Shown: piece by piece, positions 8,154-39,000 of the stretch | How the letters are laid out: each line of letters starts with the position of its first letter | How positions within the stretch are numbered: position 1 is the stretch's first letter | Notes under the pieces: generated by a model | Seen by the model: the letters and a program-made list of their open reading frames with translations, nothing else | The model's database searches: none | What the model was told of the DNA's origin: nothing | IMG/VR virus record: IMGVR_UViG_2721755710_000002 | DNA: 44,549 nucleotides | Origin: a virus | Lineage: Duplodnaviria > Heunggongvirae > Uroviricota > Caudoviricetes | Strand: one strand, 5' to 3' | Translations under genes and position numbers: made by a program

Positions 8154-8806
8154 TGAGTAATAAATATTGCCAGGCGCTGGTGGAACTGCGGAACAAACCA
8201 GCCCATGAACTGAAGGAAGTGGGCGATCAGTGGCGCACGCCGGATAACATTTTCTGGGGAATTAACACCCTGTTTGGCCCGTTTGTTCTGGATCTGTTCA
8301 CTGATGGTGATAACGCCAAATGTGCCGCTTATTACACTGCGGAAGACAACGCGCTGGCGCATGACTGGTCTGAACGTCTTGCGGAGCTTAAAGGTGCTGC
8401 CTTTGGTAATCCCCCGTACAGCCGCGCCAGTCAGCATGAAGGGCAATACATCACCGGCATGCGTTACATCATGAAGCATGCTAGTGCCATGCGTGATAAG
8501 GGCGGACGCTATGTTTTCCTGATCAAAGCTGCCACCAGCGAAGTGTGGTGGCCGGAAGATGCAGATCATATTGCTTTTATTCGCGGGCGTATTGGTTTTG
8601 AACTGCCTGCCTGGTTTATCCCGAAGGACGAGAAGCAGGTGCCGACAGGCGCTTTCTTCGCTGGTGCTATTGCTGTTTTCGACAAGACCTGGAAGGGACC
8701 GGCAATCAGCTACATCGGGCGCGATGAACTTGAGGCATGTGGTGAGGCGTTTCTGGCGCAGGTTCGCCAGCAGGCAGAAAAACTGGTCAGGGAGATGGCG
8801 GCATGA
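8153..8806 (+). CDS. phage N6-adenine DNA methyltransferase (Dam-like, orphan)
   Basis: NPPY catalytic motif (…AAFGNPPYSRA…); start at the ATG overlapping the upstream stop (TAATG). Confidence 0.8.
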   Translation: MSNKYCQALVELRNKPAHELKEVGDQWRTPDNIFWGINTLFGPFVLDLFTDGDNAKCAAYYTAEDNALAHDWSERLAELKGAAFGNPPYSRASQHEGQYITGMRYIMKHASAMRDKGGRYVFLIKAATSEVWWPEDADHIAFIRGRIGFELPAWFIPKDEKQVPTGAFFAGAIAVFDKTWKGPAISYIGRDELEACGEAFLAQVRQQAEKLVREMAA

Positions 8807-9129
8807 CGACGTTAACTCAATGCCAGCAGCAGGTGCTGGATATGCTGATTTCTTATCAGAAAGAACGTGGCTTCCCGCCAACCAATCAGGAGGTGGCAAC
8901 CATGCTGGGATACCGTTCGGTGAATGCAGCGGTGGAGCATCTTCGCGCACTGGAGAAAAAAGGCGTCATCACGATAAAGCGTGGCGTGGCCCGGGGGATA
9001 ACGCTTCATACCGCGGTGAAGGACGACGACAGCGAGGCGGTCGGGATTATCCGCGCACTGCTTGCCGGTGAGGAAAACGCAAGGCTGCGTGCAACCCACT
9101 GGTTACATGAGAGGGACCTGAAAGTATGA
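8803..9129 (+). CDS. LexA-N-terminal-like winged-helix DNA-binding protein
   Basis: 108 aa; …QEVATMLGYRSVNAAVEHLRALEKKGVI… resembles the LexA DNA-binding domain without a peptidase domain. Confidence 0.55.
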   Translation: MTTLTQCQQQVLDMLISYQKERGFPPTNQEVATMLGYRSVNAAVEHLRALEKKGVITIKRGVARGITLHTAVKDDDSEAVGIIRALLAGEENARLRATHWLHERDLKV

Positions 9130-9515
9130 AGCTGATCCTGCCTTTTCCGCCCAGCGTGAACACGTACTGGCGACACCCCAACAAAGGGGCGTTTGCTGGT
9201 AAGAGCCTGATAAGCGCGGCGGGGCGAAAATTCCAGAGCGCGGCGTGCGCAGCAATAGTTGAGCAGTTACGTCGTCTGCCGAAACCAACGTCGGCACCTG
9301 CTTCAGTGGAGATCGTGTTGTTTCCTCCGGATAACCGGATCCGCGATCTGGACAACTATAACAAGGCGCTGTTTGACGCCCTGACCCACGCGGGTGTGTG
9401 GGAAGACGACAGCCAGGTGAAAAGAATGCTGGTGGAGTGGGGACCGGTTATCCCGGAAGGGAAGGTCGAGATCACTATCAGTAAGTACGAGAAAACGGCG
9501 GGTGCAGCCGCCTGA
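9126..9515 (+). CDS. rusA: RusA-family Holliday junction resolvase
   Basis: 129 aa; MKLILPFPPSVNTYWRH… and conserved acidic residues (DLDNYNKALFDAL) typical of RusA. Confidence 0.8.
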   Translation: MKLILPFPPSVNTYWRHPNKGAFAGKSLISAAGRKFQSAACAAIVEQLRRLPKPTSAPASVEIVLFPPDNRIRDLDNYNKALFDALTHAGVWEDDSQVKRMLVEWGPVIPEGKVEITISKYEKTAGAAA

Positions 9516-9534
9516 TCAAGAGGAGAAACGAAGT

Positions 9535-10332
9535 ATGAATAATCTGATGGTCATTGATGGTATTGAAGTTCGTCGTGATGCTTATGGGCGTTACAGCCTG
9601 AACGATCTGCACAGGGCTGCTGGTTCTCTGGATAAGCATAAGCCTGCATTCTGGCTCCGCAATGAGCAAACTGAACGTTTAATAAGCGAGTTGCAGATTT
9701 GCAACTCGGTCAATATAGAGCCAGTTAACGTTATTCGTGGCGGAAATAACCAGGGGACGTATGTCTGCAAAGAACTGGTGTATGCCTATGCAATGTGGAT
9801 CAGCCCGTCATTCCATCTGAAGGTGATCCGTACTTTCGACATGGTAACCAGCGCACCGGAAAAATTATCCGGACAGGCTGCTGACAAGATGCAGGCTGGT
9901 GTGATTCTGCTGGACTTTATGCGCCGGGAATTAAACCTGTCTAACTCTTCAGTGCTTGGTGCCTGTCAGAAACTCCAGGAGGCTGTTGGCTTACCGAATC
10001 TGGCACCGCGCTATGCCATTGATGCTCCTGCTGACGCGCCTGATGGCTCAAGCCGCCCCACGCTGTCACTGAGTGCACTGCTGAAGCAGTATGGTATCCG
10101 CCTGACAGCTAATCAGGCATATCACCAGATGGTGAAGCTGGGGATCGTCGAGCAGCGCGAACGATACAGCCGTACCGCGATTAACAACATCAAAAAATTC
10201 TGGTCGCTGACAGCGAAAGGCTGCATGTTCGGCAAGAATATCACCAGTCCCGCAAATCCGCGCGAGACGCAGCCGCATTTCTTCGAATCCCGATTCCCTG
10301 AGCTGTTAAAGCTGCTCGATACCGTTCATTGA
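9535..10332 (+). CDS. KilA-N domain protein
   Basis: N-terminal KilA-N-like region (…YSLNDLHRAAG… / …KELVYAYAMWISPSFHLKV…); start at the ATG preceded by GAGGAGAAA. Confidence 0.7.
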   Translation: MNNLMVIDGIEVRRDAYGRYSLNDLHRAAGSLDKHKPAFWLRNEQTERLISELQICNSVNIEPVNVIRGGNNQGTYVCKELVYAYAMWISPSFHLKVIRTFDMVTSAPEKLSGQAADKMQAGVILLDFMRRELNLSNSSVLGACQKLQEAVGLPNLAPRYAIDAPADAPDGSSRPTLSLSALLKQYGIRLTANQAYHQMVKLGIVEQRERYSRTAINNIKKFWSLTAKGCMFGKNITSPANPRETQPHFFESRFPELLKLLDTVH

Positions 10333-10333
10333 G

Positions 10334-11329
10334 GTGACCGTGAGAGCACTACTGACCCCTGAAATTGCCCCGCGTATGGGGATCGTATTGTTCAGGCCAG
10401 GTTCAGAGTTGATGCCCCTGTTTATGCAGGGGCGTGTCCTGCTGGAGCCTGAGCCGGAACGTTATTCATCTTTCGCCAGTGGTGCAGTTCCGGCGGCATC
10501 ACAACCGCTGGCGGATGATCCTGCCGTTCGGGCCGTGTTCCGCAATGAGGCAGTGATCCGTCGTGCTGGTGGCGTGGAATGTCTTGAAAGCTGGTTACTT
10601 CGTGAAAAAGGCTGCCAGTGGCCTCATTCCGACTGGCACAGCGAGAACATGACCACAATGCGACACGCTCCGGGCGCAATCCGTCTGTGCTGGCACTGCG
10701 ATAACCAGCTGCGCGATCAGTTCACGGAACGGCTGGAATCAATGGCAACGGATAACTGTGCCCGCTGGGTGTTGTCTGTTGTGCGTCGGGATCTCGGTTT
10801 TGATGACAGTCACGTTGTGACAATGCCGGAACTGTGCTGGTGGCTGATTCGTAATGATCTGGCGGATGCCTTACCGGAAAGTGCAGCCCGTAAGGCACTG
10901 AGATTACCGAAGCCTGTTGTGCCGTCTGTTACCCGGGAAAGTGACCTTGTGCCTTCGGTTCCTGCCACCAGCATCATCCAGGATAAGGCGAAAAAGGTGC
11001 TGGCGCTGAAAGTGGATCCGGAGTCGCCGGAGTCTTTTATGTTACGCCCAAAACGTCGCCGCTGGGTTAATGAAAAGTACACGCGCTGGGTTAAGACACA
11101 GCCGTGTGCATGTTGTGGAAAGCCCGCTGATGATCCCCACCACCTGATAGGTCACGGTCAGGGTGGAATGGGAACAAAAGCGCATGACCTTTTTGTGTTG
11201 CCTTTGTGCAGAAAGCATCACGACGAGCTGCATGCGGATACCGTGGCATTTGAAGAGAAGTATGGCTCCCAGCTGGAGCTGATATTTCGTTTTATCGATC
11301 GTGCGCTGGCAATTGGCGTGCTGGCCTGA
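10334..11329 (+). CDS. DUF968-family phage protein (C-terminal Cys/His HNH-like motif)
   Basis: GTG start; C-terminal …CACCGKPADDPHHLIGHGQGGMGTKAHDLFVLPLCRKHHDELH…. Confidence 0.65.
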   Translation: MTVRALLTPEIAPRMGIVLFRPGSELMPLFMQGRVLLEPEPERYSSFASGAVPAASQPLADDPAVRAVFRNEAVIRRAGGVECLESWLLREKGCQWPHSDWHSENMTTMRHAPGAIRLCWHCDNQLRDQFTERLESMATDNCARWVLSVVRRDLGFDDSHVVTMPELCWWLIRNDLADALPESAARKALRLPKPVVPSVTRESDLVPSVPATSIIQDKAKKVLALKVDPESPESFMLRPKRRRWVNEKYTRWVKTQPCACCGKPADDPHHLIGHGQGGMGTKAHDLFVLPLCRKHHDELHADTVAFEEKYGSQLELIFRFIDRALAIGVLA

Positions 11330-11346
11330 TTTTGTGGAGAAAGTTG

Positions 11347-11688
11347 ATGCGTGATATGTATGAAGTATTGGACCGCTGGGGTGCATGGGCTGCAGCAGAT
11401 AACAGTGGTGTGGACTGGCAGCCTGTTGCTGCAGGGTTTAAAGGTTTACTACCTCATGGAAAGAAAACACGCCAACAATGCGATGATGATGAAGGAATCA
11501 TGATTGACAGCTGTGTTGCGCGATTGCGGAAATATAAGCCCGAAGAGTATGAGTTGGTTATTGCTCATTTTGTTATCGGCATCTCACTAAGAGCTATTGC
11601 AAAGAAGCAGAAGTGTTCTGATGGGACAATAAGAAAAGAGTTGCAAACAGCTCTTGGTTTTCTGGATGGTGTGCTTTCAATGTTGTAA
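11347..11688 (+). CDS. Q: late-gene antiterminator Q (phage 82-type)
   Basis: …VLDRWGAWAA…GFKGLLP… plus a Cys-rich segment resemble the phage-82 Q family (recalled); GGAGA RBS 6 nt upstream of the ATG. Confidence 0.7.
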   Translation: MRDMYEVLDRWGAWAAADNSGVDWQPVAAGFKGLLPHGKKTRQQCDDDEGIMIDSCVARLRKYKPEEYELVIAHFVIGISLRAIAKKQKCSDGTIRKELQTALGFLDGVLSML

Positions 11689-11692
11689 TATT

Positions 11693-11717
11693 AGGGGGAA
11701 TTACCCCCCTTTTTTTC
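11693..11717. terminator. intrinsic terminator immediately after Q, probably bidirectional
   Basis: GGGGG-aatta-CCCCCC stem followed by TTTTTTT on the plus strand; it also lies at the 3' end of the minus-strand cassette. Confidence 0.6.
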
Positions 11718-12249
11718 TCTGTTGCTTTAATAAAATTTTAATATTTTGTCTGATTATGATGAGGCAATGTAATAAAAGAAATACCGTTAGTATTGCAAGC
11801 CATACGCAAAATAAGCATGCATATAAATTAGTTGAAAGTCCAATAGTGAATTGTGCAATTGCTGTTGTGATAGAACATAATATTGATGTATTAATAAATG
11901 AGGATAAATTGTCTAAAGGTTTATAAAGTACACTATCATTGATTTTGTCAATAGGTATACCAGTGGCAATGCTATAAATTTCCTTATATTCCTGAGTTGC
12001 AAAAACCTTATCGCGTAAATTTATTATGACAAAGGTATGCAGGCTCAATAAAAATGAACCCACGGAAATAAAACCGGAGAAGAGATAGCCTCGTAAGTTT
12101 TTATGATAAAAATCAAAAAAGTTAACACTTACTTTAGGTGTGTTTCTGTACAATAGGTAAAGTGCAAGCAATGCCAGGATCGAGAATGCAAGCAGTGTAA
12201 TGTACTGATACCTCAATCTTTTATTTATTAGCCATTCATATAAAGGCAT
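11701..12249 (-). CDS. hypothetical integral membrane protein (about 4 TM helices), AT-rich cargo gene
   Basis: 182 aa with four hydrophobic segments (YITLLAFSILALLALYLLY; LFSGFISVGSFLLSLHTFVII; ILCSITTAIAQFTIGL; LYACLFCVWLAILTVFLLLHCLIII); overlaps the upstream gene by 14 nt. Confidence 0.6.
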   Translation of the reverse strand: MPLYEWLINKRLRYQYITLLAFSILALLALYLLYRNTPKVSVNFFDFYHKNLRGYLFSGFISVGSFLLSLHTFVIINLRDKVFATQEYKEIYSIATGIPIDKINDSVLYKPLDNLSSFINTSILCSITTAIAQFTIGLSTNLYACLFCVWLAILTVFLLLHCLIIIRQNIKILLKQQRKKGG

Positions 12250-13162
12250 TTTTATTCGTCCCGTTCAGCATTTCTTCTTTTATCATATCAAAAACAGGGT
12301 TTGTTGTATAATTATCGTTTGTCAATCCATTGACTTTATCGGCAATTATATCGAAATCGTATGTTTCAAAAAAAACAGGGCAGTTCATAAAATCAATGGT
12401 TTTTTCTATTCCTGCATGGTTTACTGCAATAACCTGTGCTTTAGCAACTCCACTCATAGAATTATAAATATTTGAAAGATTCTGAGATAGTTGTTGCACT
12501 TTTGTTCTGTCGCTAGAATTAAAATTCATATCTATTGTGGTGGTGTTAACAAATTGTTCAAGCGCAGTCATTGGTCCACCTTTAAAATCTATATAATTAA
12601 ATTTAAAGCTTGTGCTTTTAATCTCTTTGAATTGACATAAAACACTCTGAATGTTGTTTTTATTTGTCATAAGGCTGAAAGTCAGTCTTTCTTTGTATTT
12701 TTTATTTATTGCAGTTACTTCTTTTTGTTTTGGTTTATCACCAAGTTTTTTTATTTCTTCTTTATTTTGATTTCTGATAAATTCATTACTTATTGTTTCT
12801 AAATGAGAAAAGAGAGTGTTCAGACTGCATGAACCGTGGTGATACATATAGAGACCAGAAAGATTAGATTTTTTAATTAAGAAAAAGTTGAAATTAGCAA
12901 GTTTGTCACTTCCTTGAAGATCTTCAATTTTAAGCTGGAATTTACCATCAACAAATTGCGACTTACAGTTCTTTTTTTGGTTTCTGAATGTGACAACTAA
13001 TCCATAATAGAAATCATTCACATCCGAAATGAGAATTTTACGAGTATAGTCTGTGCGACTGTGTTCTCTGTTTGATGCGTTGATAAAAGCATTCATTACG
13101 TCAACGGTATTAATATTTTTGTTATTGTTATTTATTGTAAATCCTATGCTTCTAACTTTCAT
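12236..13162 (-). CDS. hypothetical soluble protein (308 aa), AT-rich cargo gene
   Basis: Long Lys/Asn-rich ORF antisense to the phage backbone; no Walker, HEPN, cyclase or nuclease motif recognised. Confidence 0.6.
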   Translation of the reverse strand: MKVRSIGFTINNNNKNINTVDVMNAFINASNREHSRTDYTRKILISDVNDFYYGLVVTFRNQKKNCKSQFVDGKFQLKIEDLQGSDKLANFNFFLIKKSNLSGLYMYHHGSCSLNTLFSHLETISNEFIRNQNKEEIKKLGDKPKQKEVTAINKKYKERLTFSLMTNKNNIQSVLCQFKEIKSTSFKFNYIDFKGGPMTALEQFVNTTTIDMNFNSSDRTKVQQLSQNLSNIYNSMSGVAKAQVIAVNHAGIEKTIDFMNCPVFFETYDFDIIADKVNGLTNDNYTTNPVFDMIKEEMLNGTNKNAFI

Positions 13163-13282
13163 GTGTATTCCAGGACCGACTAAAGATAGCGAGAATGGGG
13201 ACGCATAGTTTATAAAAACCCTAACGCGTACGCAAAAAGTATTATATCGTGTTAAGAGTGGTTACTTCGCCACACAGCTTAA

Positions 13283-13305
13283 ACCCGCCGCTGAGCGGTT
13301 TTTTT
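13283..13305 (+). terminator. short GC hairpin plus T7 run (candidate tR'-like terminator or insulator)
   Basis: CCGC-tga-GCGG followed by TTTTTTT on the plus strand; the stem is short, so strength is uncertain. Confidence 0.4.
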
Positions 13306-13426
13306 GTACCTGTAAACCTGGTGCAGTACAGTAAACACGCTGGTGGTCGTGAATACTGGCTTTTTATCTTGCTGGCTTTTTAGACAAGAGTTATTGGTAT
13401 GTCATGTTAACCAGAAGGGAAAAAAC

Positions 13427-13630
13427 ATGCTAAAACAGCAAGATATGACAGAAACCGCCGCCGCAGTCCTTCATTTCTTACCTGCTGACAAGTGGGTAAC
13501 GCCACGCATGATGACGAGAACTACCGGAGTAAGCGAAGCCCGGTGCCAGTTAATACTGACTCAGTTAGTTCTGGCGGGTCTGGCGAAGGATAACGGCGGG
13601 TACGGGAATAAATTCAGACGCTGCCAGTAA
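13427..13630 (+). CDS. hypothetical small protein (67 aa)
   Basis: ORF from the internal ATG preceded by AAGGGAAA; no recognised motif. Confidence 0.35.
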   Translation: MLKQQDMTETAAAVLHFLPADKWVTPRMMTRTTGVSEARCQLILTQLVLAGLAKDNGGYGNKFRRCQ

Positions 13631-13780
13631 TGGCGGTTTCCTGCTGTGAAAATGGGCGGCTGGTGGGTGTTGGTAGCACCTGCCAGCCATTCGCTCATGC
13701 TTACTGGTCACAAGCGAACCACGGCCCACTGCTTTAGCGCAAAAGCAGAGTGAGCCTACCAGAGTTACGCTTACTGATCC

Positions 13781-14833
13781 ATGAAAAATACTGTAAAAAT
13801 AAACAGTGTTGATTTAATCAACGCTGATTGCCTGCATTTTATTCAGTCCCTGCCTGATGATTCCATTGACCTGATTGTTACCGATCCGCCGTACTTCAAG
13901 GTGAAACCAAACGGCTGGGACAATCAGTGGAAAGGGGACGAAGATTACCTTAAGTGGCTGGACCACTGTCTGGCCCAGTTCTGGCGGGTGTTAAAACCTG
14001 CCGGAAGCCTTTACCTGTTCTGTGGGCATCGCCTGGCATCTGATATTGAGATCATGATGCGTGAACGTTTCAACGTGCTTAACCATATCATCTGGGCGAA
14101 GCCGTCCGGACGTTGGAATGGGTGTAATAAAGAAAGTCTGCGCGCATATTTTCCTGCCACAGAGCGCGTTCTGTTTGCTGAACATTACCAGGGGCCATAT
14201 CGCGGCAAAAGTGACGGCTATGCGGCAAAAGAAAGGGAACTCAAACAGCACATAATGGCACCGCTGATATCGTATTTCAGGGATGCTCGTGCCGAACTGG
14301 GTATAACGGCAAAACAAATTGCCGAAGCCACAGGTAAGAAAAATATGGTTTCCCACTGGTTTGGTGCCAGTCAGTGGCAGTTGCCGAATGAGGCTGACTA
14401 TCGGAAGTTACAGGCACTGTTTTCCCGTATAGCGGCAGAGAAGTTTCAGGAACAACAACTGGAACAACCACACCACCAGCTGGTGGCATCTTATGATTCA
14501 CTGAATCGCAAATATTCTGAATTGCTGGATGAGTTTAAATCTCTCCGGCGCTATTTCTCCGTATCAGTCTCCGTGCCTTATACCGATGTCTGGATGCATA
14601 AACCCGTTCAGTTCTACCCGGGTAAACATCCGTGTGAGAAACCGGCGGATATGCTCAGGCAAATAATCAATGCCAGTAGTCGACCTGGTGATCTGGTTGC
14701 TGATTTTTTTATGGGATCCGGTTCCACAATAAAAGCAGCAATGGCGCTGGGGCGTCGGGCCTTAGGTGTTGAGCTTGAGTCAGAGCGGTTTAACCAGACA
14801 GTGAAAGAGATAAACGAGCTGCTGGGGAAATAA
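13781..14833 (+). CDS. DNA methyltransferase (amino-MTase, DPPY motif first, FxGSGST near C-terminus)
   Basis: …[10 protein letters not shown]… and …[10 protein letters not shown]… motifs; no adjacent endonuclease candidate, so apparently orphan. Confidence 0.8.
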
Positions 14834-14839
14834 TCTGGT

Positions 14840-14865
14840 GGCCACGTCAGGTGGCCTTTTTATTT
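14840..14865 (+). terminator. intrinsic terminator-like hairpin after the methyltransferase gene
   Basis: GGCCAC-gtcag-GTGGCC followed by TTTTTATTT. Confidence 0.5.
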
Positions 14866-14900
14866 CCATTACACAGCACCCGCATCTGCGAGGTGGGGTT

Positions 14901-15116
14901 ATGAAATCCATGGATAAGTTAACAACGGGTGTCGCCTATGGCACCTCAGCAGGTAGTGCCGGGTACTGGTTTTTACAGTTGCTCGATAAAGTCACGCCCT
15001 CACAGTGGGCGGCAATAGGTGTGCTGGGTAGTCTGGTATTTGGCCTGCTGACGTACCTGACAAACCTTTATTTCAAGATTAAAGAAGATAAGCGCAAGGC
15101 TGCGAGAGGTGAATAA
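14901..15116 (+). CDS. pinholin (phage 21 S-type) with dual-start motif
   Basis: MKSMDKL… dual Met start; the body closely matches the recalled S21 sequence (…[17 protein letters not shown]…[13 protein letters not shown]…[11 protein letters not shown]…RKAARGE). Confidence 0.8.
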
Positions 15117-15613
15117 TGCCTCCATCATTACGAAAAGCAGTTGCTGCTGCTATTGGTGGCGGAGCAATTGCTATAGCATCAGTGTTAATCACTGGCCCAA
15201 GTGGTGACGATGGCCTGGAAGGTGTCAGCTACATACCATACAAAGATATCGTTGGCGTATGGACTGTATGTCACGGACACACCGGAAAAGACATCATGCT
15301 CGGTAAAACGTATACCGAAGCAGAATGCAAAGCCCTCCTGAATAAAGACCTTGCCACGGTTGCCAGACAAATTAACCCGTACATCAAAGTCGATATACCG
15401 GAAACAACGCGCGGCGCTCTTTACTCGTTCGTCTACAACGTGGGGGCTGGCAATTTCAGAACATCGACGCTTCTTCGCAAAATAAACCAGGGCGATATCA
15501 AAGGCGCATGTGACCAGCTACGTCGCTGGATATACGCTGGCGGTAAGCAATGGAAAGGCCTGATGACTCGTCGTGAGATTGAGCGTGAAGTCTGTTTGTG
15601 GGGGCAACAATGA
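15116..15613 (+). CDS. SAR (signal-anchor-release) endolysin, lysozyme family
   Basis: N-terminal Gly/Ala-rich weakly hydrophobic segment [18 protein letters not shown] followed by a lysozyme-like domain; sits between holin and Rz. Confidence 0.8.
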
Positions 15614-36024: not shown

Positions 36025-39000
36025 ATGGCAGTAAAGATTTCAGGTGTACTGAAAGACGGTGCAGGTAAACCGGTACAGAACTGTACAATCCAGCTGAAAG
36101 CAAAACGTAACAGCACCACGGTGGTGGCGAACACGGTGGCCTCAGAAAATCCGGATGAAGCCGGGCGTTACAGCATGGACGTTGAGTACGGTCAGTACAG
36201 CGTTATTCTGTTGGTGGAAGGCTTCCCGCCATCGCATGCCGGGACCATCACCGTGTATGAAGACTCACAACCGGGTACGCTGAATGATTTTCTTGGTGCC
36301 ATGACGGAGGATGATGCCCGTCCGGAGGCACTGCGCCGCTTTGAACTGATGGTGGAAGAGGTGGCGCGTAACGCGTCCGCAGTGGCGCAGAACACAGCAG
36401 CCGCGAAGAAGTCAGCCAGCGATGCCAGCACATCAGCCCGTGAGGCGGCAACCCGTGCGACTGATGCTGCAGGCTCAGCACGTGCAGCCAGCACGTCAGC
36501 CGGACAGGCCGCGTCGTCGGCTCAGTCAGCGTCTTCCAGCGCAGGAACAGCATCAACAAAGGCCACTGAAGCATCAAAAAGTGCTGCCGCCGCAGAGTCT
36601 TCAAAAAGCGCGGCAGCCACCAGTGCCGGCGCAGCGAAAACGTCGGAAACGAATGCCGCAGCGTCACAAAAATCTGCGGCCACATCTGCATCCACCGCGA
36701 CCACGAAAGCGTCAGAAGCTGCCACCTCAGCCCGGGATGCGTCGGCTTCAAAAGTGGCGGCAAAATCATCAGAAACGAGCGCAGCCTCGAGCGCCGGCAG
36801 TGCAGCTTCCTCGGCAACGGCGGCAGGAAATTCCGCGAAGGCCGCAAAAACGTCTGAGACGAATGCGGATAACAGCGCACAGGCGGCAGCAGACTCACAA
36901 ACTGCATCGGCAAACTCCGCGACAGCAGCCAAAAAATCAGAAACCAACGCGAAAAATAGTGAGGCAGCAGCAAAGGTCAGCGAAACCAACGCTAAAGCGT
37001 CAGAGAACAAGGCGAAAGAATATCTCGACAAGGTCGGGGGACTCGTCAGCCCGATGACGCAATACGATTGGCCTGTTGTTACTGCTAGTGAGTCTCTTTA
37101 CATCAAGATCGCGAAACTTTCCGATCCTGGAACCAGCAGAAGTCATGTAACGCTAATGGTTACTAACGCTGGTAACTACGGCTCCCCTTACGGAAACATT
37201 GACTTTATCGAGATCTCGGCGCGCGGTCTGCCTTCTTTGCTTAGTGCGGATAATGTTTCTCGTCATCTGAGTATACGCCGCTTAGGGTCAACCGGGCTGA
37301 CCGATAACAACCAGATGCGTTACGGCCTGGTTAAAGGTGACGGCTTTATTGAGGTTTGGGCATTCCAGGGTGCGTTTATTAACGACGCAAAGGTTGCGGT
37401 GCTGGCGCAGACAACACTAAGCACAGAATTATACATCCCAGACGGATTTGTTAAGCAAACCGCCGCGCCTTCTGGATATATTGAAGGCAACGTTGTAAGG
37501 ATTTACGACCAGGTAAACAAGCCGACTAAAGCAGATTTGGGTCTTTCTAATGCTATGCTTACAGGCGCTTTCGGTCTTGGCGGTAGCGGGATATCAACAA
37601 ACGGCAAGATGAGCGATGTAGAGATCTTAAAAGCTCTGCGTGACAAAGGTGGTCATTTCTGGCGCGGTGATAAGCCGCCCGGAAGCACGGCGACCATTTA
37701 TAGCCACGGTTCTGGTATATTCTCGCGGTGCGGCGATACGTGGTCAGCGATCAATATCGACTACTCAACCGCGAAGATTAAGATCTATGCCGGCAACGAT
37801 GCCCGGCTTAACAACGGGACTTTTAGCGTCAATGAGCTATACGGCTCGGCAAACAAGCCGTCGAAATCGGATGTTGGACTTGGCAACGTAACGAACGATG
37901 CGCAGGTAAAAAAAACCGGCGATACAATGACCGGTGACTTGACAATCAAAAAAGGTACACCGTCAGTCTTCCTGCGGGCAGACAGTGGAGTCACCGCTTT
38001 GCGGTTTTATACTGGCGATAACACAGAGCGCGGCATAATTTATGCTGGTCCTAACACTGATTCGCTTGGCGAAGTTCGCATCAGGGCAAAGACAGCAGGG
38101 GGGACATCAGGAGGGGATCTTGTTGTTCGTCACGACGGGAGGGTTGAAGTCCGTGATCTCACAGTAGCGTATAAAATTAAAAGCAGAACGATTGAGATTG
38201 CAAATACCGACACTGACTCATCGGCAACTACGCTAAGCATCTATGGAGTACAGCACACGCCGTTGGTTTTAACGCGTTCTGGTTCTTCTGAAAATGTGTC
38301 CATTGGGTTTAAGTTAGACAACGTGAACCAAAAGTATCTTGGAATTGATACTAATGGGGATCTGGCTTTTGGTGAGAGTCCTGATCAGAAACAAAACAGC
38401 AAATTGATCACGCAAGCGAAACTCGACAAGGGATTAACGATTGGTGGTCAACTGGCTTTCAAAGGTACGACAGCGTTTTCAGCCGTTGCTACGTTCAGTG
38501 CCGGGATAGCAGGAGCCATCGAGCCGGAAAACATTGACGGCCAGACGGTTAATCTTAACAACCTGACCATCATCAAGTCAGATGTCGGGGCAGTTAAATA
38601 CTATATTTGTCCATCCTCTGCAGGTGGTGCAAATATTACCAATAAGCCTGACGGCATAGCCGGTAACTTTTTGCTTCGTGTAGAGTCGACTCGTAAGGTT
38701 AGGGATTCAGATTATGCGAACATGCAAACGCTGATTAACAGCGACACAAAACGTATATACGTTCGCTTTGTTGTTAATGGAAACTGGACAGCGTGGAGTC
38801 AGGTTGTTGTTTCCGGATGGAATCAGGATGTAACCGTCAGGTCGTTAACCTCGACGACTCCATCAAAATTAGGTGGCGGGCGGATTGATGTGCTTGGAAG
38901 TACTTCAGATTATGGCAGCATGAATTGTACCGTTCGTGGTGTTGATAGCACTGGAACCAATTCGGCGTGGTCGGTAGGCACATCAGAAAGCACAGGCAAA

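Follow-up and report, generated by a model that had tools for sequence, protein, structure and literature searches.

Here we describe the region downstream of the gene for the late antiterminator, Q, in a 44,549-nucleotide stretch of Caudoviricetes phage DNA (IMG/VR record IMGVR_UViG_2721755710_000002), which as a whole is called the window below. Comparison with relatives makes it likely that this region is a lambdoid Q-dependent late antitermination cassette, of the type of QuuD in the DLP12 prophage of E. coli K-12, in which Q and its target promoter are split by a slot for antisense cargo genes. A preliminary description of the window had Q ending at 11688, a hairpin and T-run from 11693, and some 1.5 kilobases (kb) of antisense cargo after them, all of which is present; it had also proposed that the cargo had displaced the late promoter into 13163-13282. 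That displacement is supported by three independent comparisons, of module boundaries, of conservation and of co-variation between Q and its predicted site, which put the candidate late promoter at 13222-13261, and the 14 compact relatives described below point the same way. The candidate promoter is part of a conserved element of about 100 nucleotides (nt), at 13222-13305, which we found downstream of every QuuD-like short Q examined. Q and this element are laid out as follows:

11347..11688, plus strand: Q, late antiterminator of the short, QuuD-like type, 113 amino acids (aa), matching PF06530
13222..13238, plus strand: predicted Q-binding element TAACGCGTACGC (13222-13233) and A-tract, with the palindromic core GCGTACGC at 13226-13233
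13240..13245, plus strand: predicted -10 hexamer of the late promoter (PR'), TATTAT, weak, with TAnnnT at the same offset in 21 of 44 non-redundant loci
13250..13261, plus strand: predicted sigma-dependent pause element TGTTAAGAGTGG, which holds the -10-like hexamers TAAGAG and AAGAGT and is invariant in all relatives
13262..13282, plus strand: conserved leader GTTACTTCGCCACACAGCTTAA, from comparison of relatives
13283..13305, plus strand: first late terminator (tR'), with hairpin 13287-13299 and U-run 13299-13305

Conservation, co-variation and exchange of the predicted late-promoter element

The identity of Q is given by PF06530 (Phage_antitermQ), the family of the Q21 and 933W antiterminators, which spans the whole protein in a Pfam scan (E 1.6e-45). 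It is 45% identical to K-12 QuuD, matches the solved Q21 structures weakly (E 8.8e-5) and has Sigma70_ECF as a further Pfam match (E 1.3e-4). Its N-terminus, MRD..., has the same first residues in homologues, and sequence likeness between Q relatives stops at the Q stop codon.

The conserved block was checked in phages PhiR40_1, SfII, Stx2a_1447 and Stx1_14040 and in two Klebsiella phages. In every short-Q phage of this type checked, TAACGCGTACGCAAAAAnTATTGTATcgTGtTAAGAGTGGTTACTTCGCCACACAGCTTAA and a terminator lie just 5' of the late genes, and this is independent both of which genes follow (stx1, holin or methylase) and of what lies upstream. Relatives have other terminator sequences at the same position, after the conserved leader. 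The 18-nt core of the element, TGYTAAGAGTGGTYACTT, occurs once in the window (0.01 expected) and is present in more than 120 IMG/VR contigs; a short Q is found upstream, on the same strand, in 106 of 129 motif-bearing loci, and most of the others have too little upstream sequence to tell. Among 5,426 complete E. coli genomes, more than 1,100 carry the promoter element, and 218 carry the cassette of the window (11342-13320), mostly at 99% identity or above, including an O145:H28 strain of Shiga toxin-producing E. coli; E. coli RM12761 and Ecol_AZ146 are examples of lysogens with this prophage.

Within the element, the -10-like hexamers of the predicted pause element (TAAGAG or AAGAGT) start 13-14 nt past the start of the predicted -10. 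Beyond the pause element, the leader (13256-13282) reads GAGTGGTYACTTnGnCACnnnnCTTAA; it is near-invariant in the family, and a small GTGG/CCAC hairpin is possible within it. The leader matches no Rfam family: a scan of 11300-15200 at E <= 1 returned only one spurious long non-coding RNA match.

The palindrome, a single occurrence in the window, lies about 20 nt 5' of the core and falls into at least seven classes (GCGTACGC, GCGGTCCGC, TTTACGTACGTAAA, TTTACAATCGTAAA, ATTCGTTACGAAT, TTGTTATAACAA and TGGAATTCCA). Palindrome class and the class of the Q recognition helix correspond one to one, without exception, across 64 unique Q/site pairs, and this co-variation suggests that the predicted Q-binding element is specific to the type of Q that accompanies it. 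The Q of PhiR40_1 differs from that of the window in its C-terminal half, and the likeness of PhiR40_1 to the window begins only at 13231, just to the right of the palindrome, which is consistent with that difference in Q. A copy of the Q-site core with one mismatch, TAACGCGTCCGC, is also present in the late region at 36369-36380, where about 0.18 would be expected by chance.

Phages with a Q of the lambda family (PF03589; Ayreon and vB_EcoM-720R4) match the window almost exactly as far as 11341 and once more from 13282, but not between. In them a lambda-like PR' (TTGCAT-17-TAAGAT), then AACGATGGG, which is the lambda pause-inducing sequence, directly precede the same terminator (loci L003, 2397-2510, and L001, 3075-3185). 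These shared flanks around a differing Q and promoter indicate that 13287-13305 is tR', serving two Q/promoter modules, and that 11342-13281 is one exchangeable module which carries Q and its own promoter; Q, cargo and promoter are swapped as one unit. The point at which the two Q/promoter modules have recombined is exactly the terminator stem (window 13282). The tR' hairpin itself (13287-13299) is modest alone, at -6.3 kcal/mol.

The cargo slot and the terminators around it

In the window 1,561 nt separate the Q stop codon from the pause motif, and the predicted promoter is thus not immediately downstream of Q. The 106 loci with a short Q divide into 14 compact ones, where the Q stop lies 2-43 nt from the pause motif and the end of Q adjoins or overlaps the Q site, and 92 with 623-2,882 nt in between; on this comparison the cargo between Q and promoter is an insertion. 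Nearly all cargo open reading frames (ORFs) are antisense (130 of 135, the other 5 being on the plus strand), and the contents of the slot are diverse, with 43 ORF patterns and 48 protein clusters. Representatives of the slot proteins match Kiwa (KwaA/KwaB), PifA and an HNH effector; the candidate PADLOC systems PDC-S20, PDC-M53, PDC-S42 and PDC-M68 are also found there, as are matches to porins (NmpC/Lc), a KAP NTPase, NYN and NA37 proteins. Three cassette types (loci L017, L120 and L009) pair an NA37 protein (YejK-like, nucleoid-associated) with a large membrane-anchored coiled-coil protein, and at least one such cassette matches PDC-M53; soluble-plus-membrane pairs recur in many slot cassettes. 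In the Stx1a phage Stx1_14040 (locus L007, 3003-6326), three antisense ORFs and then this promoter element come after the short Q, and stx1A lies about 490 nt further on; in such Shiga toxin 1 (Stx1) phages, typing by Q-to-stx distance therefore spans an unrelated cargo cassette.

The slot of the window itself holds two genes, a predicted promoter for them and a terminator:

11693..11716, plus strand: intrinsic terminator after Q, a GGGGG/CCCCC hairpin with seven U residues (stem 11693-11698 / 11705-11710, U-run 11710-11716)
11701..12249, minus strand: cargo gene 2, encoding a 182-aa polytopic membrane protein with three to four hydrophobic segments, the RexB-like partner
12236..13162, minus strand: cargo gene 1, encoding a 308-aa soluble protein with a RexA/RdgC-like fold (AlphaFold2 model, Foldseek)
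13207..13212, minus strand: predicted -10 of the cargo promoter, TAAACT, 17 nt from TTGCGT
13230..13235, minus strand: predicted -35 of the cargo promoter, TTGCGT, made of the right half of the Q palindrome and the A-tract

The two cargo ORFs overlap by 14 nt and have a GC content of about 0.30, against about 0.52 in the flanks. As in lambda RexAB, one operon encodes first a soluble protein of about 300 aa with the RexA fold and then a small, polytopic membrane protein (four transmembrane segments in RexB), and both pairs are borne by lambdoid prophages and transcribed against the lytic genes. In contrast to RexAB, the window pair has no detectable sequence similarity to it and lies between Q and PR', not beside cI under PRM. 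Full-length homologues of the 308-aa protein occur in Enterobacterales only and are all unannotated. The nearest structure to its AlphaFold2 model (predicted local distance difference test score 82) is lambda RexA (Foldseek E 8.7e-5), and the further neighbours are RdgC, IML3 and CHL4/CENP-N, the same pattern as has been reported for RexA itself (RdgC, IML3, CHL4; PMC11077077). Scans of both cargo proteins against Pfam (E <= 0.01) and PADLOC (E <= 0.1) found no family, and membership of RexAB at sequence level is not seen. The pair is thus probably RexAB-like by its modelled fold and its operon architecture, whereas its sequence and location are not those of RexAB. Kiwa (KwaA/KwaB) was also considered for this soluble-plus-membrane pair and rejected, as there was no PADLOC match; Kiwa does fill the same slot in other phages.

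Between the Q site and the cargo start codon (13162) there are only 59 nt, and in relatives the first cargo ATG is usually 70-130 nt to the left of the pause motif, so that any cargo promoter must abut the late promoter. On the minus strand, TAnnnT occurs 16-18 nt from TTGCGT in 18 of 22 non-redundant loci with a window-type Q site (background 0.023 per position). Across all 44 non-redundant cargo loci it peaks sharply at the offset of TAAACT, with 16 loci (background 1-2) and 9 more at one nucleotide to either side; most other offsets of the variable region have 0-3. The interior bases of this -10 vary (TATATT, TAAGAT, TAGAAT, TACAAT, TATGCT and others), and none of the six compact loci examined has TAnnnT at the position. 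The preliminary description had suggested that late and cargo promoters share space, and the 59-nt gap and the 18 of 22 cargo contexts bear this out at the level of predicted sites: half of the Q site probably doubles as the -35 of the leftward cargo promoter. Another minus-strand promoter, with TATAAT at 13246-13241, was set aside, having neither a -35 nor a TG motif.

The hairpin after Q begins 4 nt beyond the Q stop codon. Its energy is unexceptional (-11.4 kcal/mol, z -0.87 against dinucleotide shuffles), and its credibility as a terminator comes from the layout of hairpin plus U7 and from its occurrence in every copy of the same cargo cassette. It overlaps the stop codon and last codons of the antisense membrane-protein gene; on its minus-strand side only UAAUAUUA comes after. 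We had considered a plus-strand terminator after Q as a trait of the whole family, and rejected this because just 11 of 64 distinct junctions downstream of Q have one (23 of the 64 have a minus-strand terminator). As Q relatives are no longer alike beyond the Q stop codon, we assign the hairpin to the cargo cassette. It is not tR', and its role is likely to be to halt early-right transcription after Q, which would spare both the antisense cargo and, without Q, the late genes. The C-run of the hairpin (11704-11709) differs in length between otherwise identical cassettes (ACCCCCT versus ACCCCCCT; loci L016 and L035); this alters the C-terminus of the membrane protein (182 aa versus 185 aa) and could reflect homopolymer slippage.

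To the right of tR' the window continues with these features:

13427..13630, plus strand: 67-aa ORF, the first late gene (from the ORF list)
13781..14833, plus strand: N6/N4 DNA methylase (Pfam)
14840..14862, plus strand: second, stronger terminator (-12.2 kcal/mol, z -3.1), ahead of the lysis genes; phage Ayreon has it annotated as such
14901..15116, plus strand: pinholin S, phage-21-type (PF04971, E 2e-35)
15116..15613, plus strand: endolysin, lysozyme-family (PF00959, E 1.8e-45)

The terminator at 14840-14862 lies after the methylase stop (14833) and ahead of the pinholin start (14901). It corrects the preliminary description, in which 13283-13305 was the sole plus-strand terminator before the late genes. 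The two terminators bracket the small ORF and the methylase gene, and leaky read-through of tR' would still stop short of the lysis genes. There is a weak plus-strand candidate at 13339-13360 as well, and terminator-like sites are enriched across 10500-15500 as a whole (18 found, against 4.8 +/- 2.5 in shuffles). On the other side, the genes 5' of Q are a LexA-like small ORF (8803-9129), RusA (9126-9515), a KilA-N-type protein (9502-10332) and a DUF968/HNH protein (10334-11329); this block (8803-11329) is common to phages with either Q type.

A proposed mechanism and its alternatives

The comparisons show the identity of the genes, the conserved element, the co-variation of Q and palindrome, the swap boundaries, the compact and cargo-bearing relatives and the positional -10 signal. 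From these we infer where transcription starts, where polymerase pauses, that Q binds and brings about read-through, and that it might repress the cargo, along the following lines. Q would be made from the early-right transcript, and the terminator at 11693-11716 would end that transcript, so that it does not run antisense into the cargo. PR', 1.55 kb downstream of Q, would have a weak -10 (13240-13245) and no -35, and would start at about 13251-13252; polymerase would then pause at TGTTAAGAGTGG (13250-13261), where sigma-70 may re-bind. Q, probably as a symmetric dimer, would bind TAACGCGTACGC between the -35 and -10 positions and load onto the paused polymerase, which, thus modified, would pass tR' (13287-13305) and the terminator at 14840-14862 and go on into the methylase, lysis and structural genes. 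The leader RNA, where terminated, would be about 50-55 nt long.

The divergent PR' and cargo promoter would lie within the same 50 or so base pairs, with their start sites about 50 base pairs apart, and presumably could not both be occupied, and bound Q would cover the cargo -35. It is plausible that cargo expression is coupled to the lysis switch in this way, through promoter competition or through occlusion of the cargo -35 by Q. We suggest more tentatively, and with considerable doubt, that Q binding turns the late genes on and the phage's own abortive-infection cargo off; that the slot is dedicated to antisense defence or moron genes; and that the arrangement gives self-immunity in the lytic cycle. 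On the same doubtful footing, the palindromic site would imply a symmetric Q dimer and a loading geometry unlike that at the direct-repeat site of Q21.

Several observations weigh against parts of this proposal. There is no recognisable -35 or extended -10 at PR', and about half of the relatives have no more than TnnnnT for the -10, leaving both promoter strength and sigma factor uncertain, and the sequence TATTATA / TATTGTA can be read as a -10 on either strand. A consensus promoter scan gave no site on either strand in 13163-13282, since both proposed promoters fall under its 4-of-6 rule. Rueggeberg is said to have proposed, in 2015, that RpoE acts at the DLP12 essD promoter. The nominal P of about 5e-18 for the 18 of 22 loci with the positional -10 ignores the shared ancestry of those loci, and at other classes of Q site (GCGGTCCGC, DLP12) the leftward -10 is weak or absent. 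For the cargo, the likeness between RexA and the 308-aa model is at the level of fold only, with 7% identity in the structural alignment.

The absence of a -35 hexamer would also fit a different reading of the element, in which TGnTAAGAG is an extended -10 of the late promoter, with a start at about 13265, and Q acts near the -35 as a class-II-type activator or surrogate for sigma region 4, alone or in addition to antitermination. The TG, one variable base and TAAGAG are invariant, whereas the upstream -10 is weak; the Q family does resemble region 4 of extracytoplasmic-function sigma factors (the Sigma70_ECF match, and the Q21 fold described in 10.1101/651190); and the title of the DLP12 paper names Q a 'transcription factor'. 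We nonetheless consider this unlikely: TAAGAG has no T at the final hexamer position, and a terminator 20-40 nt further on would leave almost no space for a pause and loading site if TAAGAG were the -10. The spacing of -10, -10-like element and palindrome is moreover the layout of phage 21 and lambda, and in the relatives with lambda-type Q it is a canonical PR' and an AACGAT pause element that precede the same terminator. Such an extended -10 would in any case keep the promoter within 13163-13282.

Two other alternatives were weighed. The minus strand of 13207-13261 has the better hexamers (TTGCGT-17-TAAACT, plus the TATAAT at 13246-13241) and cargo is nearly always antisense, so that the block could be mainly a leftward cargo promoter or regulatory site, with Q only repressing the cargo and the late genes being reached by read-through or from another promoter. 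This is very improbable given that compact loci, free of cargo, retain the palindrome, the TGTTAAGAG motif, leader and terminator; that leader and terminator point rightwards, ahead of lysis or stx genes; and that the promoter scan offered no other plus-strand candidate before the late genes. Alternatively, since the late promoter directly follows Q in lambda, 21 and 82, and overlaps the end of Q in the compact relatives, it might lie in or just after the 3' end of Q in the window too, where the hairpin with U7, only 4 nt past the Q stop, would be tR' and Q-modified polymerase would cross 1.5 kb of cargo antisense. We give this hardly any credence: neither the Q-site palindrome nor the pause motif is present near 11600-11700; the end of likeness among Q relatives at the Q stop places the hairpin in variable cargo; a plus-strand terminator is rare at such junctions; and every cargo-bearing relative has the conserved element, with its own terminator, at the position of 13222-13305. 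We thus retain Q-dependent antitermination from a displaced PR' as the preferred reading of the region.

Known systems and what the arrangement may mean

The closest known counterpart is DLP12, where the order is quuD, antisense nmpC, the same element and then essD-rrrD-rzpD. Like the window, it has a short PF06530 Q, an antisense accessory gene, a leader (TGTTAAGAGTGGTTACTTCGtCACACAGCTTAA) and a terminator ahead of phage-21-type lysis genes, and the window thus has the marks of the DLP12 type of split cassette, with the TGTTAAGAGTGGTYACTT leader occurring in K-12 too (locus L010, 4722-4754). A passage of PMC7918800, citing Rueggeberg 2013, places the DLP12 lysis operon under its Q-type antiterminator; a literature search for K-12 start-site data near essD gave nothing useful. 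The two loci differ in cargo (in DLP12 the porin gene nmpC, split by IS5 and with its own upstream region of about 400 nt; in the window the RexAB-like pair) and in palindrome, that of DLP12 being TTTACGTACGTAAA, which matches another Q recognition helix than the window's. DLP12 also has minus-strand terminators after quuD and no methylase module.

The late cassettes of phages 21, lambda and 82 share with the predicted layout of the window a Q site between -35 and -10, a -10-like element past the start and a terminator before the late genes. In PR' of phage 21 (PMC6606751; 10.1101/651190), Q binds between -35 and -10, and 13 nt separate the start of the -10 from a -10-like element at about +2 to +7; the Q site consists there of two direct TGAGCA repeats 8 base pairs apart (PMC6606751). 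For the window, the predicted Q site is instead a palindrome (GCGTACGC, inside TAACGCGTACGC), and 13200-13250 has no pair of TGAGCA repeats, so that the site of the Q21 subtype is not seen. The window differs further in the length of Q (113 aa, against 162 aa for Q21) and in the distance from Q to PR', 1.55 kb where phages 21, lambda and 82 have them adjacent, and again in having no -35 hexamer and in the divergent cargo promoter predicted over the Q site.

As a site of variable content, the slot resembles the defence hotspots of P2-like phages and P4-like satellites (Rousset et al. 2022, PMC9122126), which also hold many alternative cassettes at a fixed site. Unlike these, it occurs in another phage family and position, inside a regulatory cassette, with antisense cargo and with a promoter that apparently overlaps the Q site. 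Our literature searches found no described defence hotspot between Q and a late promoter. The split-cassette arrangement is not new in kind, DLP12 being the precedent; to our knowledge, what would be new is the generality of the antisense cargo slot, the palindrome/recognition-helix code and the overlap of cargo -35 and Q site, as far as these can be read from sequence.

If the late promoter is where we predict, then in a common type of prophage it is located where automated annotation would not look for it, and the same element is present in Stx1 phages, with stx1 directly downstream. The co-variation of palindrome and recognition helix may serve as a ready specificity table for this subfamily of Q, and the gap between Q and PR' as a practical hunting ground for new anti-phage genes. 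If the cargo -35 and the Q site do overlap, this would be a simple and testable link between the activation of late genes and the shutting-off of prophage defence.

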